Source of the DNA: Candidatus Marinacidobacterales bacterium
Lineage (GTDB): Bacteria > Acidobacteriota > Vicinamibacteria > Marinacidobacterales > SMYC01
Direction of reading: 5' to 3'
DNA length: 64,000 nucleotides
Assembly: GCA_965237955.1 (NCBI GenBank)
Contig: OZ250169.1
Span: forward strand, 6,016,001 to 6,080,000
Within the stretch, counting starts at the first letter, position 1, and every line of letters begins with the position of its first letter. Shown piece after piece: positions 3,849 through 55,333 of this stretch. A program made the position numbers and the translations under genes. Below the pieces are notes generated by a model, which saw only the letters and a program-made list of their open reading frames with translations, made no database searches and had not been told where the DNA came from.

Positions 3849-4531
3849 GTGAACTTGCGCGCGGCCATGGTTACCACGGCACTGCTCGAGGACTTGGTCG
3901 AGCGGGGCTTGAATCCCGAGCGGCCGCGTCTGTTCGTGATCGACGGTTCGCAGGCGTTGCGCCGGGCCATCGATGCGGTGTTCGGCTCTCGGAACAAAGT
4001 GCAGCGATGTAGAAAGCACAAGGAGAGGAATGTTCTCGGCTACCTCCCCGAGGAGCTGAAGCCGCAGGTGCAGTCGACCCTACGCTCGGCGTGGCAGTTA
4101 CCCCCGGCCAAAGGGAAAGCGCGCCTCGAGAAGCTGGCCAAGTGGTTCGAGGACGAGTACCCGTCGGCCGCGGCAAGCGTGCGCGAAGGTCTCGACGAGA
4201 TGTTCACCATCAACGAACTCGGGCAGCCTGCAACCCTGCGGCGTTGTCTCGGTTCTACGAACATCATCGAGTCCGGCTTCAGCGGTACCAGGGGTCGAAC
4301 TCGACGAGTGACCAACTGGAAAGATGGTTCCATGGTTCTGCGATGGGCCGCCTCCGCCTTGCTCGCAACCGAGAAGAACTTCCGGCGCGTCCTGGGTTTC
4401 GAGTCGCTGCCCATCTTAGAAGCCAAGCTCAAGGAGCTCGCCCTAGGCAAAGACATTGTTCGTGAGGAGAAGGTCAGCTAGAATAACGATGACTGGAGCC
4501 GCCAACCTTCAACTGCCTCCGGGGCATCTCC
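3849..4531 (+). pseudogene. IS256-family element, 5'-truncated (transposase C-terminal half plus right IR)
   Basis: LFVIDGSQAL..VQRCRKHKERNV..STNIIES motifs; end TTCAACTGCCTCCGGGGCATCTCC resembles the IR of the IS256 at 6689. Confidence 0.85.
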
Positions 4532-6688: not shown

Positions 6689-8145
6689 GGAGATGTCCCG
6701 GCCGCTGTTGAATTTGGTCGGGTAGCGGCGGCACCTGTGAATACTCTTAGGCAGCAACCTCATCGCTGTCAAGAGATTTCTGTTTGCTTCTAAGCGCGTG
6801 AACGAGAGCGCCCATATGGCGATAGCCTTTGATACGGTGAAACTTTTTCTCCGCCGTGACGACGCCGAGAGCGGTCCATCGGCGAATCATGGAAGGACTC
6901 TTCCACCGCTTGACGTTTCTCGAGACTCTGCGGATGGTGCCGTTGAGATTCTCGATGGCGTTTGTCGTGGCCAGAGATTTGCGAAGTAACTCGGGTAGAG
7001 CGAGCTTCACAACCGTGAGGGTCTCTTCCATCCCTTCGCGAAGGCTTCCGGCAGCTTCGTCGTAGCCGTTTCGCTCGAGCCACGACACCAATGCCTGAAG
7101 TCGCTTGCGCGCCTTGTCGGCACTCTTGCATTTGTACGCTTCCTTCATTGTCTGGAGCACGTAGGCGTGACGGGACTTGGGAAGGTACGAGCGTAGATTT
7201 CGTAGTTTGTGGAGCTGGCATCTTTGGATAACCGCGAGATCCCCAAAAACGTCGACGAGTTCTTTGCGGATCCCTTTGCCTCCGTCCACTACGCAGAGAA
7301 TCGATTCGTCGATCCGCAATCCCCGCTCGAGAAGGTTCTGCAACATCGCGGTGCACACCGAGTTTTCCGTCGAGCCCAGCCATATACCCAAGGGCACCTT
7401 CGTTCCATCTATTGTGATACCGAGAGTTACGACGACGGTCTGTCCGGCCACCTCAAGGCCATCCAGCATCAGTGCCGCAAGCTCGAACTCCTCTAGCCGC
7501 CGAGACAGGTATTCCTCGAGCTTCTTAGTCGTCTGGCTCACGAGGTGACGGCTGGCGGCACTCTTGCTCGTGCCACGAGACTTCAACTTCGCCGAGGGTT
7601 TTGTCCAGACTCGATTCGTAATTTCGGGTCGATACCCCCACCAAGATCTGGTTCAGCACTCGCTCCGGAAGCGGGTCTTCTTCGCGGAAGGCTTCGAAGT
7701 GTGGAAGCGACGCCTCCTCGCCCGACTTCGAACGAACTCGAGGTCGCGACACTTGGATTCGACGACCGCCGAAGCTCAGCTCCCCATCCGTGCTCCCCCA
7801 GTGGTTATGAGTTCGCTCCTTCTCGTGCTTGCCCTTCGGCCCCGCGATCTTCTCCGCGTCCTCTCTCAGGAGTAGGTGCAATGCGGTCAGTCCTTGCTCG
7901 TACACCCATTCCGTCAGGTCCGCCTTCGTGGCCGCGATCCCAGCTATCATCGGTAGCAGTATCTGACCGACTTGGCCAACTACCTTGCCCGTAGGCGAGT
8001 GCGTTTGCTTTCTTACTGGCTTCTTTAATTTCCTTGGCATGGTGGCTCCTTGTCCCCTCTGGAGACGGTTGGTTTGGCAGACCTATTCTTAGGTCGGCCA
8101 AGGAGCCGCCGCTACCCCAAATTCAACATCCGGCGGGACATCCCC
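6689..8145 (-). mobile_element. IS256-family insertion sequence (1457 bp)
   Basis: Long imperfect IRs (GGAGATGTCCCGGCCGCTGTTGAATTTGG / CCAAATTCAACATCCGGCGGGACATCCCC); perfect 8-bp TSD AGCCAGAC at 6681-6688 and 8146-8153. Confidence 0.93.
6747..8040 (-). pseudogene. IS256-family transposase, frameshifted near 7590
   Basis: ORFs 7525-8040 (RPRVRS, GVSTRNY) and 6747-7586 (LMLDG, VVDGGKG, QRCQLHK, TTNAIENLN) are in different frames. Confidence 0.88.
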
Positions 8146-8324: not shown

Positions 8325-10043
8325 GGTTCTCCTGTCGTTTCGGGGGATCTGATTTGTGTTGGAGGGCATGGCCTATGGACGCTGCCGCGATTGTGGAAAA
8401 CGCCGGAAACTCCGGGCGAGAGAGGCGTTTAGGGAAAGGTTGTGAGCACGTACAAACGTGGAGCGGCGTTTTCCACAATCGCTTGGAAAACGCTTCGCGT
8501 TTCCCACGAGCGCCCACAGGCCCCTCCTGATATATATACAAGAAAGATTAATTCATATGGAATAAGGAAGGGGGGGCTCGATTAGTGGAGGCTATGGAAA
8601 ACGCCCTTCCAGGCTTCGAAGAGAACTCAGTCGTGAGCAAGGTCTGAACGACCAGAACCGTGGGGGCGTTTCCCACAGCCTCGTCTCCCGCTGAGGGGCA
8701 GTGGCATTTGGTGAGGCCCGTGGATTGAGAGGGTAAGCCATGTGTAGATGCGCATCGGCGAGAACGCTAGAATCTTTTTTTCCGAAAGAGAAAAGAGCGT
8801 TCCCGCGATGCGCGTTACTACGTTAGTCAACAAGCTCATCGGATTGCAAGGCCTGTGGGTCCGAGGTTTCCACTTCCAGGCGGACAAAGCCAGAGTGGTG
8901 GTGGATGTAGTACCACGGAGGAGGAAGCCTCTGTGCGGGATTTGCGGACGAAAGGTCCGCAAGAACAAAGATCGCTACAATCGCTACTGGCGGCACTTGG
9001 ACCTGTTCGGAGTCCGGACCTATCTTCGCTACTCGATCCGACGAGTGGTATGTCGGCGGTGTGGAGTGGTCAGAGAAAAGGTGCCTTGGGCAGACAAGGG
9101 AAGCCGCTTTACCAAAAGCTTCGAACAAGAGGTAGCGTGGCTGGCACAGAGGACGGACGTCAGCGCCGTAGCGAACTATTTCCGAGTGACGTGGCGTTCG
9201 GTGCGACGGATCATCCAGCGAGTGGTTGCCGAGCAGCGGGATGAGCGGCGCGAGCTCGATGGATTGCGGGTGATTGGGATGGACGAGATCAGCTACCGCA
9301 AACGCCACAAGTACTTAACAGTGGTAATAGACCATCTCAGCGGCCGGGTCGTCTGAGCGGGAAAGGAGCGCAAGGCCAAGACGCTGCTGCGGTTTTTCCG
9401 CAAGCTCGGACTACAAAGAGCCGCGGAGCTCGAAGCGGTCAGCATGGACATGTGGGAGCCGTACATAACTGTCGTCGGCAAAAAGGCTCCTCAGGCACGG
9501 GTGATCTTTGACCGCTTCCACATCGTCAAGCATCTGAACGAGGCCGTGGATAAGACCCGGCGCGAGCTGGTGCGCGAGCTCAAAGGGACTGCCCGGCGCA
9601 ACCTCAAGAACACCAAGTTTCCCCTTCTCAAGGCCAAACACAACCGCAGCGCGAAAGACAAACGGGTGCTCCGCGAGCAGGTGCGAGCTAATCGTCGCCT
9701 CTACCGCGCCATGCTTCTGCGCGACGACTTCATGGACCTCTACACCTACAAAACCGAGACATGGGCCAAGAAGTTTCTCCGAGGATGGCTGCGGCGCGCT
9801 ATGAGCTCGAGGATAGAGCCCGTCAAACGCGCGGCGAAGATGATCCGCAGCCACTTCGATGGCGTCATCGCGTGGGTCACGTGGAGACTCAGCAACGGCC
9901 GACTCGAAGGAATGAACAACAAAATCCGGCTGCTGAGCCACCGCAGCTTTGGACTCCACTCTGCCGAAGCTCTCATCAGTCTCGTCTACCTAAACTGTGG
10001 CGGTCTCACCCTCGAGAGGATCCACTGAAATGGCAGGAGAGGC
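8325..10043 (+). mobile_element. ISL3-family insertion sequence, copy 2 (1719 bp)
   Basis: Near-identical to 1892-3610 (only a handful of substitutions seen); flanks GAAAATAG/CAAAATAG (7/8 TSD). Confidence 0.95.
8808..10028 (+). pseudogene. ISL3 transposase with premature stop
   Basis: TGG(Trp) to TGA at 9354-9356 relative to copy 1. Confidence 0.92.
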
Positions 10044-41815: not shown

Positions 41816-42817
41816 TTAGTACTCGCGCTCGGGATCTATTTGATTGAACAATGGTTTGCTGGACAAAAAGCACTCGATGTTGGCGAATAGCAGATCGAGC
41901 ACGTCCGGAATATAGCGCTCCGGGTCATCGGACGACACATGCGGCGTAAGGATCAAATTGGGAACGTCCCATAAGAAGGAGTCCGGTGGCAATGGCTCGG
42001 GATCGAACACGTCCAATATGGCGCCGCTGAGCTCGCCTTGAACGAGCTTGTCGGCGAGCGCACGGTAATCGACGACTTCGGCCCTGGCCATATTGATGAG
42101 ACCCGCGCTGGGCTTCATCAAGCCGAGACGATTTTTGTCGATCAAGCCCAGCGTCGCAGACGTCAGCGGCACCGAGACGAGCACGAAGTCAGCGTCGCGC
42201 AGAGCCTCATCCAGGCCGTCCGGCTTGAACATATCGTCGACGGCCGGGTGCGGCCGGCCACTGTTCCTAACCCCGATGACACGTAGACCGAGTTGCTTGG
42301 CGCGAACAGCGGCCGCGCCGCCCATGTGGCCAACGCCGATGACGACAAGAGTCTTGCCGGACAGCGGCGTGGTAAATTTCTGGTGCCACTCCCTACGGGC
42401 CTGGCATTCGATGTAATGCGGCATGCAGTTGTTCAGCATACTGATCGCCATCGCGGCGTATTCGCCAGCCTTTTCGGCATGCACGCCACTGCTGGTCGAA
42501 ATGATGACGCCACGGGGAAGCCAGTCGAGCGGCGTTAGATGGTCAATTCCCGCGCCGGTGACCTGTATCCATTTGAGGTGCGGCGCCCGTGATGAGAGGT
42601 CGCCCGTTGGAATGCGAAATCCGACAAGAACCTCGGCCGTCTCCATCGCATGATCGAACTCTTCGGTGTCATAACCGATGCTGGGATTGATGCGGCTTGC
42701 CAAATCCGGATGCCGCCGGCACGCTTCATCCAGGATTTCGGCGGTGACATGGTACACGGTCGGGCTGGCGCGGCGGTTCTCGAAATGAACGCGTATTTGT
42801 CGATTCTCGTTGAACAT
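41816..42817 (-). CDS. D-2-hydroxyacid dehydrogenase family protein
   Basis: WIQVTGAGID, VIGVGHMG, VPLTSAT, INMARAEVV, LDVFDPEPL, ILTPHVS. Confidence 0.92.
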   Translation of the reverse strand: MFNENRQIRVHFENRRASPTVYHVTAEILDEACRRHPDLASRINPSIGYDTEEFDHAMETAEVLVGFRIPTGDLSSRAPHLKWIQVTGAGIDHLTPLDWLPRGVIISTSSGVHAEKAGEYAAMAISMLNNCMPHYIECQARREWHQKFTTPLSGKTLVVIGVGHMGGAAAVRAKQLGLRVIGVRNSGRPHPAVDDMFKPDGLDEALRDADFVLVSVPLTSATLGLIDKNRLGLMKPSAGLINMARAEVVDYRALADKLVQGELSGAILDVFDPEPLPPDSFLWDVPNLILTPHVSSDDPERYIPDVLDLLFANIECFLSSKPLFNQIDPEREY

Positions 42818-42991
42818 CTTGTCGGCTGGATTATCCGCCCACTGGCGATCCCAGTCTTCTCCAAATTCACGCTCATGCCATTTCAGAAAACAAGACACGC
42901 GGCGTCGTGCGGACCGATCGAGCCTGTTCCGCGGTCATCGAGCAACCACTAAGTCACCTCTGATCCCGCTTGCACCGGCATGAACATCGAT

Positions 42992-44131
42992 TCATGCCTC
43001 TCCATCCAGCACCTGATCAAGAATCCAATTGTCGATCGTATGTACGCCCCTTTCCGCCGTGCCGATACGTCCGGTTACATTGAACGGGGAAATCAAACCC
43101 TGCTGTTGAAGTTCGCAAACTTCGTTATCTTCGGGATGAGAAGTGTCCCAGCGTTCGTAGTATTTCTCGACGACGTCAGCAAATTCCGCCCGCTCGACCG
43201 TCGATATCGGAAAACAAGAGCCCACGATCACCTTGGTTCGTGTCGGACCCTGAGGTTGGCATTCCATCCACCACATGCAATCGCGTGTGCACCCGAAGAA
43301 CGTGTGAGGATACACAAGAACGAAATAGGTACCTTCGGCAGCTCTGCCGGTCAGAGACGGTATCGGAGGCAAGCTTGCTGTCTCGCCGCGTAACACCGCT
43401 TCCGTGCTCCCTCGCTCGAGGAACGCTCCAGACCAATTGCCGGAGGTCGTGAGCTGAACGCTGACCTGGGAGCCCAATGAGGTGCGGTGTACGGTGGACA
43501 CATGATATGCTTCCCGCTGATTCTCGATATAGACCTTCCAATTGCATGCAACGTCGTAAATCTTTCGGCGAGTACAGATCATTTCCGAGAAGTTATAAGA
43601 ACCAAGAATTTCAGGAAGGTCCCCGAGATAGTCGATGAGACTTTTGTCGTTTTGACTGAAATTTATAAATAGAAAGCCTTCCCAAGTTGCCAATCTGAAT
43701 TGCGTCAATCCATAGTCCGCCAAGTCGAAGTTCTGTGTTTCCTCCATGCCTGCAGCAGCACGCAGTGTGCCGTCCAGTGAATAAGTCCAACTATGATACG
43801 GGCAGCTGATTGCCCTGCAATTTCCCTCGGAGGATAAGAGTCGCGTCCCGCGGTGACGGCACGCGTTGGAGAATGCGCGAATTACACCGTCGTCGCCGTG
43901 TATCAGGATCACTGGCACACCGACCAGGTCGACCGTGAGATAATCGCCAGGTTTGGGAATTAAATCCGCCCGCCCAACGAAATTCCAGGTCCGCATGAAG
44001 ATCCGATCAACTTCTCGCTCGTAGAACTCCGGCGAGGTATAGCACCAAGCTGGTAACTGCTCGGCTTCCATGACGGGCCGTCGGACTTTTTCATAAAGCG
44101 CGGGATCGAGTATGTTCGTCTCGAACGGCAT
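42992..44131 (-). CDS. Rieske ring-hydroxylating oxygenase alpha subunit (choline monooxygenase-like)
   Basis: NACRHRG..CPYHSW Rieske ligands; NWK..EN..EAYHVSTVH and ED..C mononuclear iron ligands. Confidence 0.92.
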   Translation of the reverse strand: MPFETNILDPALYEKVRRPVMEAEQLPAWCYTSPEFYEREVDRIFMRTWNFVGRADLIPKPGDYLTVDLVGVPVILIHGDDGVIRAFSNACRHRGTRLLSSEGNCRAISCPYHSWTYSLDGTLRAAAGMEETQNFDLADYGLTQFRLATWEGFLFINFSQNDKSLIDYLGDLPEILGSYNFSEMICTRRKIYDVACNWKVYIENQREAYHVSTVHRTSLGSQVSVQLTTSGNWSGAFLERGSTEAVLRGETASLPPIPSLTGRAAEGTYFVLVYPHTFFGCTRDCMWWMECQPQGPTRTKVIVGSCFPISTVERAEFADVVEKYYERWDTSHPEDNEVCELQQQGLISPFNVTGRIGTAERGVHTIDNWILDQVLDGEA

Positions 44132-44489
44132 ACTGAGAACTCCTCCTCCCGGGTCGCGGACTGCATCGTGGCATGGGCATCCCGTCGATGCAAATCCGAA
44201 CTATCTGGAGTGACACGACGTGACGTCTGGCAAAGCGCGAAGCGATTTCTTGTGCCGCTGGAATTTGGTGCATATTCGGCGTACGGCAAATTCGCTGGAC
44301 ACGACCATCTTGCCGGAGTAGCGTTACTCGACATCAAAATGCCGCCTCGGTCTCTTTGCGAGGGCAGCGTGGTCACATTCGGAATTCGACGCGTTGGGTG
44401 CCGGCGCACTAGACAACGAAATCGGACGATGAGGACCGACCAGGCAAAGACAAAGGCATAGGTAGACACCGCACCGGGAGGAAACGAAA

Positions 44490-45608
44490 ATGAAATTGAG
44501 TAGATTTCGCAATCGGCGGATGGCAGCGCTCAAGCTTGGTACACTCGCCCTTGTCGTTATTGTTGGCCTTTCCGCTTGCGCCAAGTTTTCTGTCGCGGCT
44601 GAAAAGGTCACTCTCGGCTTTCCGCACACCGTCGGCATAACCTCCACGACGATGCATCTGGTTTTATCCAAGGAACTGGGGTACTACGCGGCCGAAGGGC
44701 TGGACGTCGAGTTCCTCTACTTCAACGGATCTTCGATCACTGCGCCCCAAGTAGCCACCAAGAAAGTCGACATCGCTTGGGGTGGAGCATCGTTATTGAT
44801 AAAAGCTCGGCAGAAGGGCCGCGATTATTTACCGATCAAATTCTTCTACAACTGGCTGCGGTCATCGGTTTGGGAATTCGCCGTGCTCGCGGACGGCCCG
44901 ATCCGGTCGCTGCAGGATCTCAAGGGGAAGAAACTCGGAATAAGTAATCGCGGTGCGGCGAACATCCCTCAAACCAAGGCTGCGCTCAGGAGCGCCGGCC
45001 TTGAACCTGGCACTGATGTGGGACTGGTACCGGTTGGGTATGGTGCTCCGGCATTTCGTGCACTAACGACGGGTGCAGTACAGGCATTGAATTTGTTTGA
45101 AGGTATGCACGTTATACTAGAGACCCGTGGTACCAAGCTGCGACGCCTTGCTTACGACGAAAAGTTCAGTAAGATGTTCAGTGACGGCTTTTACACGCAT
45201 GACGACACGATCAAGAACCGGGGCGCAATGTTGGCGAAGTTCGGGCGGGCTGTAACCAAAGGGATCATCGCCTGCGAGGCCAATCGTGAAGCGTGCACCA
45301 GGGCAATGTGGAAACATATTCCGATCAGGAAACCGGTAAAGGGCCCCGAGGCCAAACACTTGGCCAATTCAGCAAAGGTGTCGAAGGCTCGGTATGAAAG
45401 GATTCTTGCCTTCGAGCCTGGAACACCAAGAAAATTCGGGGAGTACCCAGCCGGAAGTTGGCGGCAGTTTGTTGATGTACTTTACGCCGAAGGTGAGTTA
45501 AATACTCGAGATATCCCGATCGACACGCTTTTCACAAACGAGTTTGTCGCTGACTTCAATAAATTTGACGCCGTCGCCGTGCGTCGCCAGGCACGGGCCG
45601 CGAACTGA
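44490..45608 (+). CDS. NitT/TauT-family ABC substrate-binding protein
   Basis: Signal peptide; ELGYYAAEGLDVE, DLKGKKLG, FTNEFV. Confidence 0.88.
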   Translation: MKLSRFRNRRMAALKLGTLALVVIVGLSACAKFSVAAEKVTLGFPHTVGITSTTMHLVLSKELGYYAAEGLDVEFLYFNGSSITAPQVATKKVDIAWGGASLLIKARQKGRDYLPIKFFYNWLRSSVWEFAVLADGPIRSLQDLKGKKLGISNRGAANIPQTKAALRSAGLEPGTDVGLVPVGYGAPAFRALTTGAVQALNLFEGMHVILETRGTKLRRLAYDEKFSKMFSDGFYTHDDTIKNRGAMLAKFGRAVTKGIIACEANREACTRAMWKHIPIRKPVKGPEAKHLANSAKVSKARYERILAFEPGTPRKFGEYPAGSWRQFVDVLYAEGELNTRDIPIDTLFTNEFVADFNKFDAVAVRRQARAAN

Positions 45609-45672
45609 AGGTCTGCACCTTTGCGGAGCGCAGGGGAGAGACTCTTCTCCTCTGCGTTCTCGTAGATTGATA

Positions 45673-46482
45673 GTGAACAGCGAACGTCCAAGCGAGGGGC
45701 CTGTCCTCATTGCGAAAAGACTCTCCGTCGTTTACGCGACGAAGCGCGAGCCCATCACCGCCCTGAAGGATTTGTCGCTCGAGGTCGATATCGGTGAGTT
45801 CGTCTCAGTGATTGGCCCTTCGGGATGCGGAAAGTCAACGCTTGCCAAGGTTGCTTCAGGGCTTTTGCCGCCGAGCGGTGGAGAGGTATTGTTGGCAGGA
45901 ACGCCGGTGACGGCTCCTCGCCGGGACGTTGGCGTCGTGTTCCAGAATCCTTGTCTGCTGCCATGGAAAACTGTGCTCAGCAACGTAATGGTTCCGGCAC
46001 GCGCTCTCAATTTAGATCCGGTTGCGTCCCGAGAGCGAGCCTTTGAGCTCCTGCGCCTGGTGGGGCTCGAGGGATTTGCAGACAATTATCCGAATGAATT
46101 GTCCGGCGGCATGCAGCAACGAGTCGGCTTAGCGCGTGGATTGCTCCATGATCCCTCGGTATTGCTGATGGATGAGCCATTGGCCGCGCTGGATGCCCTC
46201 ACGCGCGAGCACATGTCAGCCGAGCTCCAGCGAATCTGGATGGCCACCCGCAAGTCCGTCATTTTCATAACGCACAGCATTCCTGAAGCCGTGTTCCTCT
46301 CGGATCGTGTCGTGGTGCTTTCAAATCGTCCCGGCCGCGTCATAGATGACGTGCCTGTCAATCTGCCGCGTCCTCGAGACCTGGACACAATGGCTACACC
46401 AAGCTTCGTTGAAATTTGCAATCTACTTCGAAAAAAATTCGACCAAATGGACGCACCCACCAGAACGGATGGTACAAAATGA
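45673..46482 (+). CDS. NitT/TauT-family ABC ATP-binding protein
   Basis: GPSGCGKST, LSGGMQQR, LLMDEP, ITHSIPEA. Confidence 0.93.
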   Translation: MNSERPSEGPVLIAKRLSVVYATKREPITALKDLSLEVDIGEFVSVIGPSGCGKSTLAKVASGLLPPSGGEVLLAGTPVTAPRRDVGVVFQNPCLLPWKTVLSNVMVPARALNLDPVASRERAFELLRLVGLEGFADNYPNELSGGMQQRVGLARGLLHDPSVLLMDEPLAALDALTREHMSAELQRIWMATRKSVIFITHSIPEAVFLSDRVVVLSNRPGRVIDDVPVNLPRPRDLDTMATPSFVEICNLLRKKFDQMDAPTRTDGTK

Positions 46483-47270
46483 GAGAGAAAGTAACCCTCG
46501 TCTTGTGCCCGCTGATCACGCTTGTCGTCGTCATATTTCTCTGGTCCGTTTACCTCGAAATTTCCGAAGTTCCAAACTACATTCTTCCAGATCCTTACTC
46601 GGTGTTCTCGACATTCATTGCTGCTTATTCGCAAGGTCATATCTGGCCGCATCTCTTCTTTACGTTCAAATCAACCGCGCTTGGATATTTCGTCGGCTGT
46701 GGGCTTGGGCTAACCCTCGGCAGTTTGCTTGCCGAATCCAGGACGTTCGAGAAGTTCATGTACATTTATGTGGTCATCTTGCAGTCCATGCCGAAGGTCG
46801 CCTTGGCGCCTCTGATCATTGTGTGGTTCGGGTTTGGTATCGAATCAAAAATCGTTATGGTCGCGCTGCTTTGTTTTTTTCCCGTGTTCATCAACGCGTT
46901 CGTCGGCATTCGCCAGGCAGATCCCGACCTCATCGATGTATTGCGTGTTTTTTCCGCTTCGAGATCTCTTATCTTCTTCCACGTGAAACTGCCGGCGGCT
47001 TCGGGGAGCATATTCGCCGGTTTACAGATCGCTGTCGCGCTGGGCCTGATTGGTGCCGTCGTGGCCGAATTCATAGCATCCCAGCACGGGCTGGGCACCG
47101 TCATTCAATCAGCTGCTCTCGAACTCGATACCAGCTTGATGTTGACTGGTGTTTTCTCGCTTGCGTTGATGGGGGTTGCCGGAAATCTTTTAGTGAGAAT
47201 TTGTCATCGTAAGGTTGTATTTTGGGAGGAAGGTCGCTCGCAGATAAAGACGAATTTGGAAGTTGCGTGA
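46479..47270 (+). CDS. NitT/TauT-family ABC permease
   Basis: PKVALAPLIIVWFGFG, LPAA..IFAGL, GAVVAEF; ATGA overlap. Confidence 0.92.
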   Translation: MREKVTLVLCPLITLVVVIFLWSVYLEISEVPNYILPDPYSVFSTFIAAYSQGHIWPHLFFTFKSTALGYFVGCGLGLTLGSLLAESRTFEKFMYIYVVILQSMPKVALAPLIIVWFGFGIESKIVMVALLCFFPVFINAFVGIRQADPDLIDVLRVFSASRSLIFFHVKLPAASGSIFAGLQIAVALGLIGAVVAEFIASQHGLGTVIQSAALELDTSLMLTGVFSLALMGVAGNLLVRICHRKVVFWEEGRSQIKTNLEVA

Positions 47271-47483
47271 GCTAAGCTTGGCGAGGAATATGGCTCCTCG
47301 ACGTTCCAAGTGGAATTTGGTCCGGAATCCACTCGAGAGGTCGAAGAAGCACGAACTTTCGCGACACTATTAGCTGCTGTATTGCTCGTCGCTTTGAAAT
47401 CTAAATTGCTAACGCTCAGTGTCTGTTCCGATGTTTTCTGGTGGCATGGCTCGAAACGACGAGTCGATCAAACACAAACGGCC

Positions 47484-47835
47484 TTATGGATCTTGCCATA
47501 AACTCCCGTTTTCGTGGAAGTATCCAATTGCTTTGGCAATCTCGTGAAACTCTCGCGGTGAAAGCCGTTCCACCAATTCAGCGAAATACATTGGTTGATT
47601 CTCGATTAGCAGCCGGACTTCCCCTGCCAAAGCATCTGTGCCCGTCACTTGCCGTGGGGCGACTTGGGTATCGCTTGTTTTCCCGAGATAGTCCTCTAGA
47701 TGCACTTCCGTCGCGCCAACGTAAGCGATGCGTTCGAACCACTCGCGCGGAGCTGCGTCTGGGATCGTTGCGTCGATTCCCATCTTCGCCGTGGTCGGCA
47801 CGCCAGCGTACGGCAAAGACGATAAACTGGGGATC
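47484..47835 (-). pseudogene. UbiD-family decarboxylase C-terminal remnant
   Basis: LPYAGVPTTAKMGIDAT motif; 5' part replaced by an IS1380 end. Confidence 0.6.
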
Positions 47836-47849
47836 GTGGGGCTTGGCCC

Positions 47850-47999
47850 GGAGCCGTGGAACTCCAGCTTCAGGCGGCGGTCGAAATCCAGCCGAAATGG
47901 CTCGCATTTGGAATCACCCGCCGGGTGACGCCGGTTACCCGCCGAGCTATTTTGAGTCAAGCTCAATTGTGTCGGAGGGACTCCTATGGGGAATCCCGG
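47850..47999 (-). mobile_element. IS1380-family left-end fragment
   Basis: CCGGGATTCCCCATAG end, then H.AGDSKCEPFRLDFDRRLKLEFHGS typical of the IS1380 transposase N-terminus; start codon absent. Confidence 0.65.
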
Positions 48000-48015
48000 A
48001 TTAGGAGAGGGTGCG

Positions 48016-48648
48016 ATGGCGGATCATCTGGACGGCCTATCCGGCGACATCGTCGAGGATACCGTGATCGCCGCGCGGGGCTCGTGGACCCGTCGCATCG
48101 AGCGTGGCGAGACGCTACGGATCATCGATCTCGAGGGCTGCCAAGCGGTCGATTTCCTGTGCTACAACGCCGACGACCACGACGATCGCTACGCCGCCGC
48201 CGACACCATGAAGATCAACGAGACGGGGATCTTCCTCACTGCCGGCACGGTGCTCTACAGCGTGCGCCTGACGCCGCTGTTCACCATCACCGCCGATACC
48301 TGCGGTAAGCACGACACCATCGGCGGCTGCTGCTCGGCCGAGCTCAACGCCTTCCGTTACGGCGTCGTGGATGAGCCCAACTGCCGTGACAACTTTCTCA
48401 CCGAGCTCGAAAAGTACGGCATGGGCAACAACAACATGGCGGCCAACATCAACTTCTTCATGTTCGTGCCGGTCGGCGTCGACGGCGAGATGGACATGGG
48501 ACCCAGCATCTCGAAACCCGGCGACTACGTCGATCTCAGGGCGGAAACCGATGTGCTGGCGGTGATCTCCAACTGCCCGCAGATCAACAATCCGGTCAAC
48601 GACTACAACCCGACGCCGGTCCGGGTCGTCGTGTCGGGCGGGTCATGA
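48016..48648 (+). CDS. DUF1989 / urea carboxylase-associated family protein
   Basis: LRIIDLEGCQAVD, HDTIGGCCS, CRDNF, NINFFMFVP, SKPGDYVDLRAE, SNCPQINNP. Confidence 0.9.
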   Translation: MADHLDGLSGDIVEDTVIAARGSWTRRIERGETLRIIDLEGCQAVDFLCYNADDHDDRYAAADTMKINETGIFLTAGTVLYSVRLTPLFTITADTCGKHDTIGGCCSAELNAFRYGVVDEPNCRDNFLTELEKYGMGNNNMAANINFFMFVPVGVDGEMDMGPSISKPGDYVDLRAETDVLAVISNCPQINNPVNDYNPTPVRVVVSGGS

Positions 48649-48862
48649 TCGGGGGCCGTGACCGGGTCGCCGCAGCAATTGGTTGACAATCGGTCTGGAT
48701 CTGAAATTCTGAGACACTAGTGTCGAAGAAATTCGGCCTCATATCATCAAGACCCAGGGCACGACGTCGCGGATGAAGCCCTGCGTTCCAGAATACGCAT
48801 GTTCGCTTGGGCGGGCCGAGCTGGAATTCCCGATTTGATCATCGAGGGAATGACGCTTTAAT

Positions 48863-48909
48863 TGGTCGGGGCGGCAGGATTTGAACCTGCGACCCCCTGA
48901 TCCCGAACC
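48863..48909 (-). repeat. att-like duplication of the tRNA-Pro(CGG) 3' end
   Basis: 47 bp identical to 55257-55303 except one mismatch (TTTGAA vs TTCGAA); stops at the anticodon arm. Confidence 0.9.
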
Positions 48910-48981
48910 GGCCTGCTGGGCCTACATCCGTGCGAATCCACGTCGCCATTGACACTACCAACAATCCGGGGCGGAGCGCTC

Positions 48982-49536
48982 TCAGTTCTCGGGAGAGCGC
49001 TCGGGTTCGCCCGCGTCCTGATCCGACGTAAGAAACTCAGCGGTTTCCTCCGCCGAAACGCCGACTGGACCCGTCACCAAAACCGGCGAAGCCTCGATCT
49101 CCTGAGCGTGCATCATCTCAGCGACCCTCTGGAGCGTGGAAAGGATGAGCGTTTGCTCCCAGTCTTCGAGCCCCTCGAGTGCGTTGGCGAACCGCTCCTG
49201 CAGTAGCGGCGGAGCCACCTGGATCGCGGTTCGACCGACATCGGTGAGCTCGTTGATGACCCGCCGCTTGTCCTCGGTGCTGCGCCGCCTTTCGATGAAT
49301 TTCTTCTTGCCGAGCCGCTCCAGAATGTCGGAGAGCGTCGCTTGTCCGAGCGAGACCCCATCGGCGAGCTGACCCGTCGTTTGCGGCCCACGCTTTTCCA
49401 AGGACTGCAGGACCACGAGCTGGGGCCCGGTCAAACCGTAGTGTTGCGCCAGATACTTCGAATGTAAATCCACGGCCCGGATGATGCGCCTGAGGGCGGA
49501 GACAATCTCACCCAGGGTATCGAAGTCCTTCGTCAC
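48982..49536 (-). CDS. MarR-family regulator (EctR/CosR-like)
   Basis: ALRRIIRAVDLHSKYL..YGLTGPQL, RSTEDKRR, APPLLQERF, LQRVAEMM..EASP; pattern typical of osmolyte-operon MarR proteins. Confidence 0.88.
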   Translation of the reverse strand: MTKDFDTLGEIVSALRRIIRAVDLHSKYLAQHYGLTGPQLVVLQSLEKRGPQTTGQLADGVSLGQATLSDILERLGKKKFIERRRSTEDKRRVINELTDVGRTAIQVAPPLLQERFANALEGLEDWEQTLILSTLQRVAEMMHAQEIEASPVLVTGPVGVSAEETAEFLTSDQDAGEPERSPEN

Positions 49537-49580
49537 GATGTAGTCGCCTCCAACGACTCACCCCATGGTACTTTCCGGGC

Positions 49581-51074
49581 CTACAATCGGCTACTCGGAT
49601 CCGCCCAGCGCCGTACTAGGCTCTCTAGCAAGCGCGGGTTCGAGAACTGGCGCACGAAGATGTCCTTGTAGACCTGCTCCTCCCGGCTGCGTGCCGGAGA
49701 TGCGGGCTCCTCCTCCCCGACGAGCACGTCCGAGATCACGCGCATCCTTTGGGCGACACCGCTTCCCTCGTCAAACTGAGCTTTTTCGCGCCACAGTATC
49801 TCCGCGGGCACCAGATCTTCGCACGCTTTTCTCAGGATCCACTTTTCCGTTGCGGAAGGGCCCGGCGCCGGGTAGAGCTTGAGCTCGGGAGGGATGCGGA
49901 AGGCTAGGTCGATCATGGAAAGATCGAGAAACGGGACGCGCCCCTCGACCGAGTGCGCCATGGTCATGCGATCGACGCGCTGAAGATTGACGTCATGCTT
50001 GGCTCCCACGGAACGACGAAGCTCGTCCTGCAGCGTCGTCGCTCGATTGGCGTAGTCCTTGTAGTACGCATAGCCCGCGAAGAGCTCGTCGGCACCCTCT
50101 CCGGTCAGGACGACCTTCACGTGATCGGACGCGAGGCGCGCGGTGAAATAACAGGGAATGGCGGAGCGCACCAGGTCGACGTCGAAAGACTCCATGTGGT
50201 AGAGGATATCGGGAAGCTTCTCGACGATCTCGTTTTCGTCCAGGACGTACTCGTGGTGGATGGTGCCGAGTACGCGCGAAACAAATCGTGCAGCTTCGAG
50301 ATCATCGCTTCCCTCGAAGCCAACGGTGAACGTGTGAAGCTCGGAGACGTGCCGTCGCGCGATGGCGGTGATGATGGCGCTGTCGAGACCTCCAGAAAGA
50401 AAAGCCCCCACCGGAACATCGCTCATCAAACGTTTGTGAACAGCGTCTTCGATCGCAGTTCGCACCGCCAACGCCACCGTGCTCGCGTCGGCCGAGGCGT
50501 GCAGCGTCGACGCGGGATCAGGCAGAGCGAAGTACTGGTGAACGCCGGTCCGCGAATGAAACCAGGTGCCCGGCGGAAACTCGCGCGCTTGTCGGATACC
50601 TTTAGGAAAAGCCTTGAGCTCGGAAGCGAACAGAAGCCGTCCGTCATCCTCGGCCACGTAGAGAGGCTTGATGCCCACCGGATCGCGCGCCGCGTAGACG
50701 TCCTCGCCGTCGGCAATCACGAAAGCGAACATTCCATCGAGGTGGTTAGGAAGCTCGACTCCGTCCACGTCGTAAAGATGGAGAGCCGCCTCGGTGTCGC
50801 TTCCGGTGTTGAAGCAGTAGCGCCCCCTCAAACTGCGGCGGATTTCCGGGAAGTCGTAGATTTCACCGTTGCCGACGATGGCTCTTCCCTGGTCCGCTCG
50901 GATCGGTTGATCACCGCCCGCGGGATCCATGATGGCGAGGCGACAATGCCCGAGCGTGCCGTGCTCGCTCTCGAGCTTGCCGGAGGTATCCGGGCCCCGG
51001 TGCGCGAGACGCGCGAGCATGCGATCAACGAACTCGGGCTCGGGAGCTCCCCAGACGGAGGCGACGCCGCACAT
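49581..51074 (-). CDS. asparagine synthase-like glutamine amidotransferase
   Basis: N-terminal MCG (Ntn Cys), HRGPD, NGEIY, LSGGLDS PP-loop, TGEGADELFAGY, EGRVPFLD. Confidence 0.92.
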   Translation of the reverse strand: MCGVASVWGAPEPEFVDRMLARLAHRGPDTSGKLESEHGTLGHCRLAIMDPAGGDQPIRADQGRAIVGNGEIYDFPEIRRSLRGRYCFNTGSDTEAALHLYDVDGVELPNHLDGMFAFVIADGEDVYAARDPVGIKPLYVAEDDGRLLFASELKAFPKGIRQAREFPPGTWFHSRTGVHQYFALPDPASTLHASADASTVALAVRTAIEDAVHKRLMSDVPVGAFLSGGLDSAIITAIARRHVSELHTFTVGFEGSDDLEAARFVSRVLGTIHHEYVLDENEIVEKLPDILYHMESFDVDLVRSAIPCYFTARLASDHVKVVLTGEGADELFAGYAYYKDYANRATTLQDELRRSVGAKHDVNLQRVDRMTMAHSVEGRVPFLDLSMIDLAFRIPPELKLYPAPGPSATEKWILRKACEDLVPAEILWREKAQFDEGSGVAQRMRVISDVLVGEEEPASPARSREEQVYKDIFVRQFSNPRLLESLVRRWADPSSRL

Positions 51075-52621
51075 TAGGGCACGAGTCCTCGTTCTCGGAG
51101 AAACTCCGCGGCAACGGCCTCGATCGACCGCTTGCCTTCCTCCACCGAGGCGTTCAGTCCACGCATCGTGGCGTCATCGATGCGATCGGCGAGAGCCGAG
51201 AGCGCCCCTCGGAGCTCGGGCCAACGTTTGAGGACTTCTCGGCGCGCTACCGGCGCAGCCTGGTACGGCGGAAAGTAGGACGCGTCGTCCCCGAGCGTCT
51301 GCAGGTCGTACGCCTCGATCCGCCCGTCGGTGGAGAACGCAGCGATGGCGTCGACTTCGTTTCCGGCAAGGGCGCTGTACATCAACGCCGGATCGAGATC
51401 GCGTACTTCGCCGAACGCGAAACCGTACCTGCGGCTCAAGCCCGGATAGCCATCGGCACGCTCGGCGAACTCCGCCGTGAATCCCGCTCGAAGGTTGGTC
51501 GCGTCTCGAGCGAGATCGGAAATGGTGGTCCAACCGCGCCCACTCGCGTCGTCGCGGCGGACCGCAATCGTATAACTGTTATCGAATCCCAGAGGCGGGA
51601 GCCACTCCAAATCGAAACGCTCGCGGTACTCCTCGGTCACGATGGTCCAGAGATCATCGGGAGATTCCGGCATCTCCAAATTCAAAACCGCCGTGAGTGC
51701 CGTGCCCGAGTACTCGACATAGAGATCGAGCTCCCCCGAAATGAGCGCTTCATGGCAGATCATCGTGCCCCCGAGGTTCGGGTAACGCTCCACGCGAAGC
51801 TCGGTGCGCGCTTCGACGAGTTGCGCGACGACTTCGGCAAGGACGAGCTGTTCGGTGAAATTCTTGCTTCCGATGCGCACGACTCCCTGCTCGGGCGCAG
51901 CCGGGCCACCACTGGTGAGCGACAGCGCTCCGAGCACGACGAGCGCGAGGGGAGACCAGGCAGCGACGGCTTTCAGGCGCGCCTTCCACGCGGTTCTCTC
52001 TTGCCGTCGCGGCGCTCGGAGTCCCCACGCGGCCGCGCCCAGGCTGAAATCCACGGCCATTGCCAGGATGGCGGCTGGGATGGCGCCGAGGAGGATCAGA
52101 TCGTATCGCGAGAGGGCCAGGCCGCGGTTGATGAATTGACCGAGCCCGCCCGCGCCGATGAACGCCGACAGGGTCGCGATGCCGACACCGACCACCGCCG
52201 CGGTTCGAATCCCGGCCACGATGATCGGAGCCGCGAGCGGCATCTCCACGAGGACGAGACGCTGGCGCGAGCTCATCCCGACGCCGTCGGCCGCTTCGGT
52301 CACCGACGGTGGGATGGTCTCGAAACCCGCGAGCGTATTCCGCACGATGGGCAAGAGCGCGTAGAGGGACAGGGCGGTAATGGCGGGAAGAGCGCCAATC
52401 TGCCGGAACAGGACGAGAAGAAGCGCGAGCATGGCGAGGCTCGGAATCGTCTGTAGAATGCCGACGACGCTCAAGACCACGCCCTTGAGCGCACGTTGGC
52501 GCGCGGCAAGAATCCCGAGGGGGACTCCGGCGAGGATGGCGAACACGGTGGAAGCGCCGGTGAGCACCAGGTGCTCACTCGTCCTCAGCCAAAGCTCGGC
52601 CCAGCGCGAAGCATCCATCAC
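51074..52621 (-). CDS. osmoprotectant ABC transporter, fused permease/substrate-binding protein
   Basis: QTIPSLA, AGIRTA, GAGGLG permease; GSKNFTEQ, EYSGT, FPPYQA betaine-binding domain. Confidence 0.92.
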   Translation of the reverse strand: MMDASRWAELWLRTSEHLVLTGASTVFAILAGVPLGILAARQRALKGVVLSVVGILQTIPSLAMLALLLVLFRQIGALPAITALSLYALLPIVRNTLAGFETIPPSVTEAADGVGMSSRQRLVLVEMPLAAPIIVAGIRTAAVVGVGIATLSAFIGAGGLGQFINRGLALSRYDLILLGAIPAAILAMAVDFSLGAAAWGLRAPRRQERTAWKARLKAVAAWSPLALVVLGALSLTSGGPAAPEQGVVRIGSKNFTEQLVLAEVVAQLVEARTELRVERYPNLGGTMICHEALISGELDLYVEYSGTALTAVLNLEMPESPDDLWTIVTEEYRERFDLEWLPPLGFDNSYTIAVRRDDASGRGWTTISDLARDATNLRAGFTAEFAERADGYPGLSRRYGFAFGEVRDLDPALMYSALAGNEVDAIAAFSTDGRIEAYDLQTLGDDASYFPPYQAAPVARREVLKRWPELRGALSALADRIDDATMRGLNASVEEGKRSIEAVAAEFLRERGLVP

Positions 52622-53379
52622 CTGAACACGTCTGAAATCACGCGCAGCTGTTCTCGGATGCGACCGACGAGTTGTTCCACGTACGGAGTCGCGGGTCGCC
52701 GCAACACGTCGGAAGGAGCGCCGACTTGTTCGAGCCGTCCCTCGTGAAGGATGGCGATACGATCGCCGAGTCGCACCGCCTCGAAGACGTCGTGGGTGAC
52801 GAACAAGATCGTCTTGCGAAGCCTCTTCTTGAGAGACACCAACTCTCGTTGGAGCTCATCGCGCGTGACCGCGTCGAGAGCGCCGAAAGGCTCGTCCATG
52901 AGGAGGTGCACGGGATCCGCGGCGAGCGCGCGCGCCACACCGACTCGTTGCTGCTGCCCTCCGGAGAGCTCCTCCGGGAAACGCTCGCCATACGCGGACG
53001 GATCGAGGCCGACCAGCTCCAGCATCTCGTGCGCACGCCGGCGCTGTTCGCTCGCTCCCAGTCCCTGAAGCCTCGGAACGACACCGACGTTTTGTAAGAC
53101 CGTCATGTGGGGAAAGAGCCCAATCCCCTGAAAGACGTAGCCGAGCGAGCGGCGCAACGCGACCGGGTCCACCTGGGCTGTGTCCTCGCGGTCGACGTGG
53201 ACGGTGCCGCTCGTCGGCCGAACGAGCCCGTTCACCATCTTGAGGAGCGTGGTCTTACCGGATCCCGAAGACCCCAACAGCACGAGGGTTTCACCGTCCG
53301 AAACCTCGAGGCTGAGCTTTTCGACGGCAAAGCTCCGACCTTCGTCGAAGGTTTTGGAGATGTCGCGAAAGGCGATCAC
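52618..53379 (-). CDS. osmoprotectant ABC transporter ATP-binding protein
   Basis: GSSGSGKTT, GYVFQGIGLFPH, LSGGQQQR, MDEPFGALD; GTGA overlap with the methyltransferase stop. Confidence 0.92.
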   Translation of the reverse strand: MIAFRDISKTFDEGRSFAVEKLSLEVSDGETLVLLGSSGSGKTTLLKMVNGLVRPTSGTVHVDREDTAQVDPVALRRSLGYVFQGIGLFPHMTVLQNVGVVPRLQGLGASEQRRRAHEMLELVGLDPSAYGERFPEELSGGQQQRVGVARALAADPVHLLMDEPFGALDAVTRDELQRELVSLKKRLRKTILFVTHDVFEAVRLGDRIAILHEGRLEQVGAPSDVLRRPATPYVEQLVGRIREQLRVISDVFR

Positions 53380-54209
53380 TGCGGGCGCGGTGGGCCGGCG
53401 CCTTGGGTCATAGGAAATGGAACTTCCTTCTGCTTGCTCGCGATCATGGCCACGTAGTAGAGGGGGCGTCCGTCGGTCGCGAGACGGTGCCGGTACCGTC
53501 GATACGCCTCGATGCGAATCACCCCGAGGCGGCTGAGCTCTCGGACCATGCGGGCAAAACCAGAGTCGTCCCGTTCCTGCAAGAAGTCTTCTTTGATATT
53601 GAAGGCGAGCCAGCCCGGCGTTGAGATCAGGGAAAGTGCTGTCGAGAATGCCTTCGGTGGAATGTCGCCAAACCCCAGCGTCGCGACCGTGGTCAGGCAA
53701 TTGAGCTCTTTGGACACCAGCCGCTGGGCCTCGTCCGTCGGCAAATCCGTCATGTCCGTGACGAGGTATTCCTGATAGATTCCTTTTCGGTCTCGCCCCG
53801 TCGCCGAGCGGGCTTCCGGGATGATGTCGACACCGACGATGGTGTCCACGCCGAGGCTCTGGAGCTCATCGCCCACCATGCCGTTGCCCGCTCCCAAATC
53901 GAGCACCCTCAAATCGTCGGGCGACTGACCTTGCTCGCGCATCACGTCGGCAAGGAGACGCGTAACTCGAAACGGGGAGATGCACTCGAGGCGGTCGTAG
54001 AAGAGCCTTTCGTAGAGTCCGGGGATATCGAAGATGGCCGCGTAATCATGAAAACGGATTTGTCTTTGGGTGCCTTCGACGGTGACGACACACCACTCCT
54101 CGTCCTGTGCAAGCCGCTCCTCGCTCTTGCCGGGGAGCTGGATCGCCTCGATGCTCGTGTCCATCGCCGAAAGCCGTTCCTTCCACACTGTTTCCGCAGT
54201 CGTAGTCAT
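53376..54209 (-). CDS. class I SAM-dependent methyltransferase
   Basis: VLDLGAGNGMVG motif I, VGVDI motif II; N-terminal RFHDY..IPGLYE extension. Confidence 0.85.
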   Translation of the reverse strand: MTTTAETVWKERLSAMDTSIEAIQLPGKSEERLAQDEEWCVVTVEGTQRQIRFHDYAAIFDIPGLYERLFYDRLECISPFRVTRLLADVMREQGQSPDDLRVLDLGAGNGMVGDELQSLGVDTIVGVDIIPEARSATGRDRKGIYQEYLVTDMTDLPTDEAQRLVSKELNCLTTVATLGFGDIPPKAFSTALSLISTPGWLAFNIKEDFLQERDDSGFARMVRELSRLGVIRIEAYRRYRHRLATDGRPLYYVAMIASKQKEVPFPMTQGAGPPRPQ

Positions 54210-54364
54210 GAAGCTTGCGCGTCCCCTTTTCGAGTTAAAGAAAAACTTGCCAAATTCTGAAGACCTAAATATATCGACCCCACACCAAAATTGCAACGAA
54301 CGAGTCTCCGCAACAAGAAACCTCATCCTTAAAACAAAGCCTACAGTTAACTTACAGCGATGCA

Positions 54365-54399
54365 TTGACAGCGACCCGGGTCTACTGTAGTTTGACTAC
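54365..54399 (+). promoter_or_regulatory. sigma70-like promoter overlapped by a short inverted repeat
   Basis: TTGACA-N17-TAGTTT; GTAGT-TTG-ACTAC palindrome over the -10 box. Confidence 0.45.
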
Positions 54400-54468
54400 C
54401 ATAGAACAAGCGTTGCTATCGTTCGACCACGATGGAACTGGAGGCGCCTGGAATTCCCCGTAAGGCAC

Positions 54469-54845
54469 GTGGATCCGACTGAAAGAAAGGACTTCGGGAC
54501 GAAGTCCGACGACGACCTCGGGGAATACACCCGCATCTGTGTGCTCGTGGCCCGTAAGAACAACCTGTTCTCGGCGGCCGCCCGTACGGGATACGAAGAG
54601 CACGGCCGAGGCGCCGTTTTCTATTGTGGAGTGTGGGAGGAGATGCCCACAAAGCGACGCCTTGGTACTTGCCCGCTACGGAGCCCGAGTTTGCCAGCGT
54701 CGGCACCGAAATCCAGCAGGCCGTAGCGGTGTACCGTCCGTTGTCACAGGACGTGGTGGTCATCGTCACCCGAGACGATGAGGTCTTTGTGGCGAGGCTG
54801 CGGCTCCCAAGTCGCGATCCAGTCGTTGGAAGCCGGATGAACTGA
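54469..54845 (+). pseudogene. small hypothetical protein, probably frameshifted
   Basis: AARTGYEEHGRGAVFY in one frame continues as WYLP..QAVAVYRP..VVVIV in another. Confidence 0.4.
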
Positions 54846-55108
54846 TGCAGGTCCTCAGGCCTCTCACCGCACCCATCGTTGCCAGCGGAATGGTTGGCGC
54901 GTCACTCGCCGCGTGGGCATGTTACGCGCACCGGCAATGGCAAGAGAGCATCGAGAGAGAACGCTTCGTTTTGTCGATGAAAGCGGCTTCGACACCGGAG
55001 TCGCTGGCGCCGGAGGAGCGAGAGCGCCTTCGATTGCTGCGGGCGCCGTGGTGGGGCGTTTGGCGCTGGATCCCGGCGCAGCTCGGACGGGGCGATGACC
55101 CTCGATGA
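54845..55108 (+). CDS. small hypothetical membrane protein
   Basis: 87-aa ORF with one hydrophobic segment; TGATG coupling. Confidence 0.35.
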   Translation: MQVLRPLTAPIVASGMVGASLAAWACYAHRQWQESIERERFVLSMKAASTPESLAPEERERLRLLRAPWWGVWRWIPAQLGRGDDPR

Positions 55109-55189
55109 GCGAGAGCGAGACGAGCCTCAATCGGATTCATTGCATACCGCGTTCGGGATTGTGAGCCGGGCGGCTGCAACCTACAGGGC

Positions 55190-55221
55190 GTTACCCAGTA
55201 TGTTACCCACGGCTGTTACCC
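55190..55221. repeat. three GTTACCC direct repeats next to the tRNA 3' end
   Basis: GTTACCC at 55190, 55202 and 55215; resembles integrase arm-type sites. Confidence 0.55.
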
Positions 55222-55256
55222 GCGCGAGTTGCGTTCTCGCAACTTGTTGATTCATT

Positions 55257-55333
55257 TGGTCGGGGCGGCAGGATTCGAACCTGCGACCCCCTGATCCCGA
55301 ACCAGGTGCTCTACCAAGCTGAGCCACGCCCCG
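55257..55333 (-). tRNA. tRNA-Pro(CGG)
   Basis: CGGGGCGTGGCTCAGCTTGGTAGAGC-CCTGG TTCGGGA TCAGG-..GGTTCGAATCC..CCCCGACCA. Confidence 0.97.

Follow-up and report, generated by a model that had tools for sequence, protein, structure and literature searches.

The DNA analysed here, referred to as the window, is a stretch of 64,000 nucleotides of contig OZ250169.1 from Candidatus Marinacidobacterales bacterium. At positions 48982-54209 it carries an operon that combines a methyltransferase and an asparagine-synthetase-type enzyme with an osmoprotectant transporter and a MarR-family regulator, and that is likely an osmotically regulated synthesis-plus-uptake module. Its five co-oriented open reading frames (ORFs) lie on the minus strand and contain no internal stops. 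The first is MT1, a class I S-adenosylmethionine (SAM)-dependent methyltransferase of 277 amino acids whose start is backed by homologues (53376-54209; Pfam Methyltransf_23). It is followed by a ProV/OpuCA-like ABC ATPase with a GTG start that overlaps the methyltransferase stop (52618-53379; ABC_tran), a permease fused to a betaine-type substrate-binding domain (51074-52618; BPD_transp_1 and OpuAC), a short AsnB-type glutamine amidotransferase of 497 amino acids (49581-51074; GATase_7 and Asn_synthase), and an EctR/CosR-like MarR regulator (48982-49536; MarR). The first four genes overlap at their three junctions (GTGA, TGATG, and TAATG), and a gap of 44 nt separates AsnB from MarR. ORF calls and Pfam families thus confirm the five intact, co-oriented genes with overlapping junctions described in the original prediction. 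When each of the five genes is compared with its counterpart in the related genome G006, 33-36% of codons differ at the third position and 5-9% at the second, a pattern that purifying selection would produce. Contigs of a related strain in one RNA run span much of the operon and cover intergenic DNA as well, so this coverage is no evidence of expression.

The regulator shares 39-44% identity with MarR proteins encoded beside ectABC on annotated plasmids, compared with 29% over 52 amino acids for a generic MarR, the reference being annotated MarRs that flank ectABC and not the characterised EctR and CosR proteins themselves. Seventy plasmid records matched, and all three of those inspected lie in ectABC clusters, which supports the EctR-like assignment proposed earlier. 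According to the available portions of the published studies, EctR and CosR repress genes for solute synthesis and uptake (10.1101/845297, PMC5924519, PMC13342039), respond to a signal that is not settled (PMC13342039, PMC5924519), and bind an AT-rich pseudo-palindrome that covers the -10 box with two half-sites of 8 bp (PMC5924519). In the window, a predicted sigma-70 promoter (TTGCAA-N17-TATATT; 54268-54296, minus strand) lies upstream of the methyltransferase gene, and a similar block is present in the relatives G006, G008, G009, G021, and G025. A candidate operator, the inverted repeat GTAGT-N3-ACTAC (54387-54399), has a similar motif at the same place in G006, G008, G009, and G025; this dyad is conserved in 5 close loci, yet it stands far upstream of the -10 box. 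No dyad beat shuffled sequences in a palindrome enrichment analysis of 29 upstream regions. By analogy with EctR, the regulator would repress the operon by binding close to the TTGCAA/TATATT promoter. In G004 (L188, 7877-11914), a MarR with 75% identity to that of the window accompanies another AsnB (~43% identity) and an SSS symporter, and MT1 is missing.

The operon resembles the ectR/cosR-ectABC(D)-ask clusters, in which, as far as the accessible text of PMC13342039 describes them, an EctR/CosR-like MarR, biosynthetic enzymes, and a solute importer also stand in one cluster. Unlike those clusters, the window encodes a class I methyltransferase and AsnB as its enzymes, has an OpuC/AfProX-like importer, and lacks ectA and ectC. 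The two ect genes were not found in the host genome, in which bet genes were not searched for; this extends to the whole genome the earlier remark that the islet is devoid of them. A true EctC was found in none of 33 genomes with the module; four gave weak matches of 27-35 bits, whereas the positive control scored 198. Since repressor, importer, and two enzymes are arranged as in ect clusters in genomes without ectoine synthase, the operon would be suited to both synthesis and recapture of a solute.

The binding domain of the transporter is nearest to OpuBC, OpuCC, and AfProX. It contains an aromatic cage and carboxylate-binding Lys, Thr, and Arg residues of predicted betaine type, and these positions are conserved across 50 substrate-binding proteins (SBPs) from the fetched loci; the final Tyr of the cage is Phe in 43 of them. 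Apart from the positions mapped to EgtU, the cage and carboxylate residues follow AfProX numbering. The ABC system is accordingly predicted to import quaternary amines. A cluster F-III cage and the conserved Lys, Thr, and Arg are shared with OpuC, AfProX, the binding proteins derived from T. sp. OpuBC, and EgtUV, whereas the window SBP differs from these in the terminal Phe, in the lack of the EgtU glycine, and in its coupling to enzymes. The host has a second Opu-type ABC system (L171, G000:C1:1889977-1892307), whose cage differs in that its last aromatic position is occupied by Asn, and which stands without enzyme partners.

The fused permease-SBP layout, a similarity of E ~1e-50 to EgtUC, and a weak match of the amidotransferase to TIGR03104, the model for the N-acetylglutaminylglutamine amide (NAGGN) amidotransferase, would fit a variant of a known system, either ergothioneine uptake (EgtUV) or NAGGN synthesis. 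Such a variant is very improbable. The invariant Gly244 of EgtU is Phe in the window SBP, and the F293/Y337 switch reads Tyr and Phe, the AfProX form (mapped by motif to positions given in the available text of 10.1101/2022.05.02.490363). The TIGR03104 score is 265, below the cut-off of 570.1, and no ngg-like ORF occurs in the islet (48910-55256), as had been noted at the outset. NAGGN synthesis (AsnO/Ngg) is similar in that an AsnB-fold amidotransferase is proposed to amidate an osmolyte; the window differs in having no Ngg partner and an AsnB of the short type, not the long type.

The genes of the operon are repeatedly found together elsewhere. From the methyltransferase side (METHYLTRANSFERASE), the best 80 of at least 536 relatives, minus two duplicates (G006 and G025), gave 78 loci that include Planctomycetota, Acidobacteriota, Gammaproteobacteria, and Actinomycetota. 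Within 7 kb of MT1, an Opu-type ABC system is present at 35 of these loci, MarR at 17, a short AsnB at six, and all three at two. Even samples around Desulfohalobiaceae, gammaproteobacterial, and Pseudonocardia centres contained MT1 in 11/251, 14/300, and 6/251 genomes, respectively, and the 30 evenly sampled loci have metK (five), ahcY (three), ABC (two), and AsnB (two) as neighbours. Because MT1 homologues adjoin metK, ahcY, or metE-like genes, a high turnover of SAM is suggested. Genes for glutaminase, nitrilase-family hydrolases, asparaginase II, and an SSS symporter also occur near MT1, and the transporters themselves are built as permease-SBP, SBP-permease, separate genes, or an SSS symporter. 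In three gammaproteobacterial genomes (L043, L044, and L152), MT1 and AsnB are separated by the gene for a glutaminase of ~675 amino acids that has two glutaminase domains. The neighbourhood check thus revealed co-occurrence far beyond chance in several phyla, where a lack of co-occurrence would have told against the original prediction; the module is real and conserved across several phyla.

From the AsnB side, even samples of 17/351 and 7/351 genomes, each including the seed, provided 24 loci from two phyla, in stretches of 3 to 18 kb of which 11 were widened by choice and with several genomes being close kin. A methyl-transfer gene is a neighbour in 17 of them (MttB in 12, a SAM-dependent methyltransferase in nine), an Opu ABC system in seven, and MarR in five; six have none of these. 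None of the host's five long-type asnB genes has a methyl-transfer, Opu, or MarR partner within 8 kb. Two metagenome loci (L105 and L110) contain the whole MarR-methyltransferase-ABC-AsnB set at ~54% identity, and L226 and L227 show the layout MarR-MT2-AsnB-ABC, that is, the layout of the window with another methyltransferase. A further recurrent order is MttB-pterin protein-MttB-corrinoid-MT2-AsnB, sometimes followed by ABC or metK-ahcY (L182, L228, L229, L233, and L234). In L233 and L234, tandem AsnB pairs end the MttB-corrinoid-MT2 clusters, one member being 53-56% identical to that of the window and the other diverged (32%). Among cultured carriers, Maioricimonas sp. JC845 encodes an MT1 and a short AsnB at loci apart from each other, and Oxynema aestuarii encodes the AsnB.

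Three fusions were found among the best 150 AsnB representatives, one of AsnB with MT3 (P0243) and two with MT2 (P0252 and P0266), and they suggest that methyltransferase and AsnB share a substrate. MT3 is homologous to MT1 (hhalign 88.9%, E 2.4e-6, 190 columns). The MT1-MT2 alignment is limited to the SAM-binding motif (71 columns), and the two were therefore treated as separate families. MT2 was at first thought to be EanA-like, an assignment that was dropped as neither PDB nor NCBIfam supported it.

The explanation that we favour, with evenly balanced confidence, is a system under EctR-type control in which N-methylation of an amino acid, with amidation as an option, is combined with import of the betaine-like product. 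MT1 would carry out the N-methylation that yields the solute, the side-chain carboxylate would in some cases be amidated by the AsnB-type enzyme, and the ABC system would import or recapture the betaine-like quaternary amine. Amidation may be an optional tailoring step, like that of EctD for ectoine, because MT1 occurs mostly without AsnB and AsnB mostly with a methyl-transfer gene. The step would render an anionic betaine net neutral. The AsnB and amidase neighbours make aspartate or asparagine our guess for the likeliest skeleton; a product that is N-methylated aspartate or asparagine ('asparagine betaine') is a rather doubtful proposal.

Several observations weigh against this explanation, and the first of them concern the linkage itself. 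No partner is present at 35 of the 78 best methyltransferase loci or at 21 of the 30 evenly sampled ones, and many loci are close kin, so the linkage counts are not independent. A short AsnB (E 1e-60 or better) is missing altogether from 43 of 50 methyltransferase genomes that were picked because none lies next to MT1, which makes amidation optional at most. AsnA is present in five of 28 tested methyltransferase genomes; found beside no module, it was dropped as a stand-in for AsnB. Together, these two counts imply that free asparagine is not obviously the substrate, and MT1 and AsnB are not an obligate pair. Even among the relatives of the host, MT1 alone is kept in G013, G015, and G021, three of the seven that have it, and G009 has lost most of the ABC system and AsnB.

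A second group of observations concerns MT1. Its predicted model (pLDDT, the predicted local distance difference test score, of 90) shows a generic class I fold with an N-terminal extension, and many residues are near-invariant across 120 sequences. METTL27/WBSCR27 is both the best PDB sequence match (phmmer E 3e-5) and an Atlas neighbour (score 0.96); it is nonetheless distant, with 22% identity in a structural alignment, and does not stand above other class I methyltransferases. The structure model and two fold searches revealed no close or informative structural neighbour. The glycine/sarcosine N-methyltransferases GSMT and SDMT are not among the PDB sequence or fold matches listed, and no direct comparison with them was made; in these matches MT1 shows no specific likeness to known betaine N-methyltransferases, which weakens the original prediction. 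No longer, fused forms of MT1 were found, which is weak evidence. The top fold matches include METTL5, PrmA, and HEMK2, which are RNA or protein methyltransferases, and would fit a methyltransferase that modifies a macromolecule or the signal of the regulator (RNA, protein, or MarR ligand) and not a bulk solute. The position of marR is consistent with this as well, directly preceding the methyltransferase gene in 13 and divergent from it in five of the 25 loci with both genes, and the authors of the WBSCR27 study, in the available part of their text, favour nucleic acid on structural grounds, having found no substrate (PMC9240639). We regard a macromolecular or signal target as quite improbable: small-molecule methyltransferases are tied with the macromolecule enzymes in fold score (Z 14-15.6), the metK and ahcY neighbours suggest a high flux, and adjacency to a regulator is normal in a regulated operon.

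The third group concerns AsnB. The window enzyme passes the asparagine synthase B model NF006949 (518.2, cut-off 499) and matches E. coli AsnB (1CT9) with E 6e-87. It has in common with 1CT9 the N-terminal nucleophile (Ntn) Cys2 and SGGLDS, both of which had been reported as intact and are indeed found, as well as GEGADE and the aspartate-site Arg. The differences are a length of 497 amino acids, DCAR changed to NLQR, and Asp-Leu-Val-Arg (within a DLVRS motif) aligned with the aspartate-site Thr-Thr-x-Arg, whose two threonines are implicated in aspartate binding in the available text of PMC5775275. Phylogenetic analysis of 197 sequences, with the host's long-type AsnBs as the root and with fragments of <440 amino acids and most near-identical homologues left out, places the window enzyme in a DLVRS clade (support 0.98) with P0243. 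The AsnB-like part of the earlier description stands on the NF006949 score, and an AsnO-type assignment fails on the TIGR03104 score. In the same tree, xLVRS/NLQR is widespread in short AsnBs, and the E. coli type branches within this group. The motif changes were down-weighted as a sign of a substrate switch for this reason, and DLVRS/NLQR is weak evidence of a new substrate.

These similarities to asparagine synthetase would be expected if the operon were an osmoprotectant importer regulon with passengers, in which an ordinary AsnB provides free asparagine, tRNA-dependent synthesis being the only other route in this host, and the methyltransferase is independent. The host has gatB and no AsnA, and the distributions of methyltransferase and AsnB are largely uncoupled, both of which fit. 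Other evidence makes passengers unlikely. A short AsnB is missing from 36 of 40 relatives, which together with the gatB and AsnA status of the host indicates that the window enzyme is not housekeeping; the aspartate-site threonines read Asp-Leu; and AsnB is repeatedly fused to or adjoins three methyltransferase families. Unlike E. coli AsnB, the window type is patchy in occurrence, non-housekeeping, and tied to methyl-transfer and Opu genes. Module-linked AsnBs in L027, L114-L116, and L218 start with MSG instead of MCG; judging from this loss of the glutaminase nucleophile, their nitrogen donor may be ammonia or an amine. Two AsnBs of 1064-1139 amino acids (P0335 and P0379) have related EPELIRS/NLxR motifs and look eukaryotic. 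Their C-terminal region of ~550 amino acids has no Pfam match and contains a motif that we presume to be suggestive of a pyridoxal phosphate enzyme.

The last group concerns the neighbours of AsnB, since MttB and FAD-oxidoreductase genes fit the breakdown of betaine as well as its synthesis. The main alternative is accordingly uptake of betaine with recycling of methyl groups and nitrogen, and no new solute: the ABC system would import glycine betaine or kin, the AsnB subfamily would capture ammonia or methylamine from betaine turnover, and the methyltransferase would drain or balance SAM. At 12 of the 24 AsnB loci a member of the MttB family is a neighbour, and several of these loci also have FAD oxidoreductases or corrinoid and pterin-binding partners. 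They resemble the MtgB/C/D system for betaine demethylation as described in the available text of PMC12478193, and they join the same AsnB subfamily to MttB, corrinoid, and pterin-binding proteins; the word 'asparagine' is absent from the main text of that paper. Nitrilase-family, glutaminase, and asparaginase neighbours, and the loss of Cys2 from some linked AsnBs, also agree with recycling. Unlike the MtgB/MtgC/MtgD clusters, the window has no MttB, corrinoid, or pterin-binding genes, and tblastn found no MttB-like gene in the host. EctR and CosR repress genes of solute synthesis as well as uptake in the portions of the studies cited above, and the fusions suggest a product-forming pair. Taken together, recycling without a new solute is rather unlikely, while being the strongest of the alternatives.

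With these points weighed, the original prediction of an uncharacterised pathway for an amidated and/or methylated solute is sustained in part. Gene co-occurrence, the ectABC-type MarR, the betaine-type cage, and the AsnB-methyltransferase fusions speak for it, and the NF006949 pass, the many methyltransferase genomes without AsnB, and the lack of a specific likeness of MT1 to betaine methyltransferases among the matches listed speak against it. The favoured explanation, an EctR-type regulated system that methylates, optionally amidates, and imports a solute, can be tentatively extended to a widespread compatible-solute system built around the short AsnB subfamily and making an N-methylated amino-acid amide (asparagine-betaine-like). 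Such a system would use interchangeable methyltransferases (three SAM families, or corrinoid MttB in anaerobes), Opu ABC or SSS import, and turnover by amidases and demethylases, and would be under EctR/CosR control in ectoine-less Acidobacteriota, Planctomycetota, Desulfobacterota, Gammaproteobacteria, and Actinomycetota.

The operon is bounded on the right by a tRNA-Pro(CGG) gene (55257-55333, minus strand) and on the left by an att-like repeat (48862-48909, minus strand) that duplicates 48 bp of the tRNA 3' end apart from one mismatch and has no further occurrence in the 8.1 Mb genome. The 6.35 kb between the repeats contain no integrase, and two small ORFs there have no Pfam match. The GC content of the islet is 62% compared with 60% for the genome, and the GC content at third codon positions (GC3) of the operon, 0.74-0.77, equals that of der and priA, compared with 0.59-0.60 in the neighbouring island. 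Among the 40 related genomes compared, seven have a true MT1 homologue and an eighth match is weak. The full operon is present in G006 and G025, and in G008 with a frameshifted AsnB. In G006 and G009 the operon adjoins the same tRNA-Pro(CGG), with the att scar at the same place in G006 and eroded in G009; in G008 and G025 it has no tRNA within ~10 kb and no att scar. Contig joints across the element show other tRNA letters or are ambiguous, and a clean empty-site joint was not seen among them. Spread as a tRNA-targeted islet, as proposed originally, therefore applies historically, and only to the host (G000), G006, and G009; the absent integrase, core-like GC3, and tRNA-free copies in G008 and G025 contradict it as a general account. 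The unit has been relocated but does not qualify as an autonomous element. Insertion into tRNA-Pro(CGG) took place at least once in this family, and the unit now lacks an integrase. MT1 was not found in viral contigs and has a single weak plasmid match. G006 encodes a second MT1, of 48% identity (L018, G006:C32, 9254-11736), and at a distance of 1.6 kb from it 51 bp of the tRNA-Pro(CGG) 3' end are duplicated without a mismatch. The MT1 of G015 (L011, 10491-11565), 97% identical to that of the window, no longer adjoins the other operon genes; ORFs resembling insertion sequences and recombinases lie on its flanks, and its promoter is replaced.

Adjoining the att copy is a lower-GC3 island (41816-48648) with genes for a D-2-hydroxyacid dehydrogenase, a Rieske oxygenase, an SsuA-like ABC system, and a DUF1989 protein; those at 41816-47270 appear full length. 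The Rieske oxygenase has glycine betaine monooxygenase GbcA as its best NCBIfam match, under the cut-off (168 vs 670), and an apparent fragment without a family match is presumably UbiD-like, recognised by eye. Elsewhere in the window, near-identical transposase copies occur at 2315-3595 and 8748-10028, the second one split, with more transposase fragments at 3849-4481 and 6747-8040.

No title or abstract listed in literature searches that covered few subscription journals describes this module, asparagine betaine, or aspartate betaine. A regulated osmoprotectant cluster is a known kind of system, and the enzyme set and product appear new. In marine systems, much carbon and nitrogen is exchanged in the form of betaine-type solutes, and new compatible solutes and their pathways are rare finds. 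With its two enzymes, the module is a directly testable route to a new solute and would extend EctR/CosR control to genomes without ectoine synthase. The linkage suggests that many 'asparagine synthase B' annotations may instead belong to methylated-amine metabolism. If the tentative extended reading is true, a methyltransferase family with the orphan METTL27 among its relatives would also gain its first substrate.

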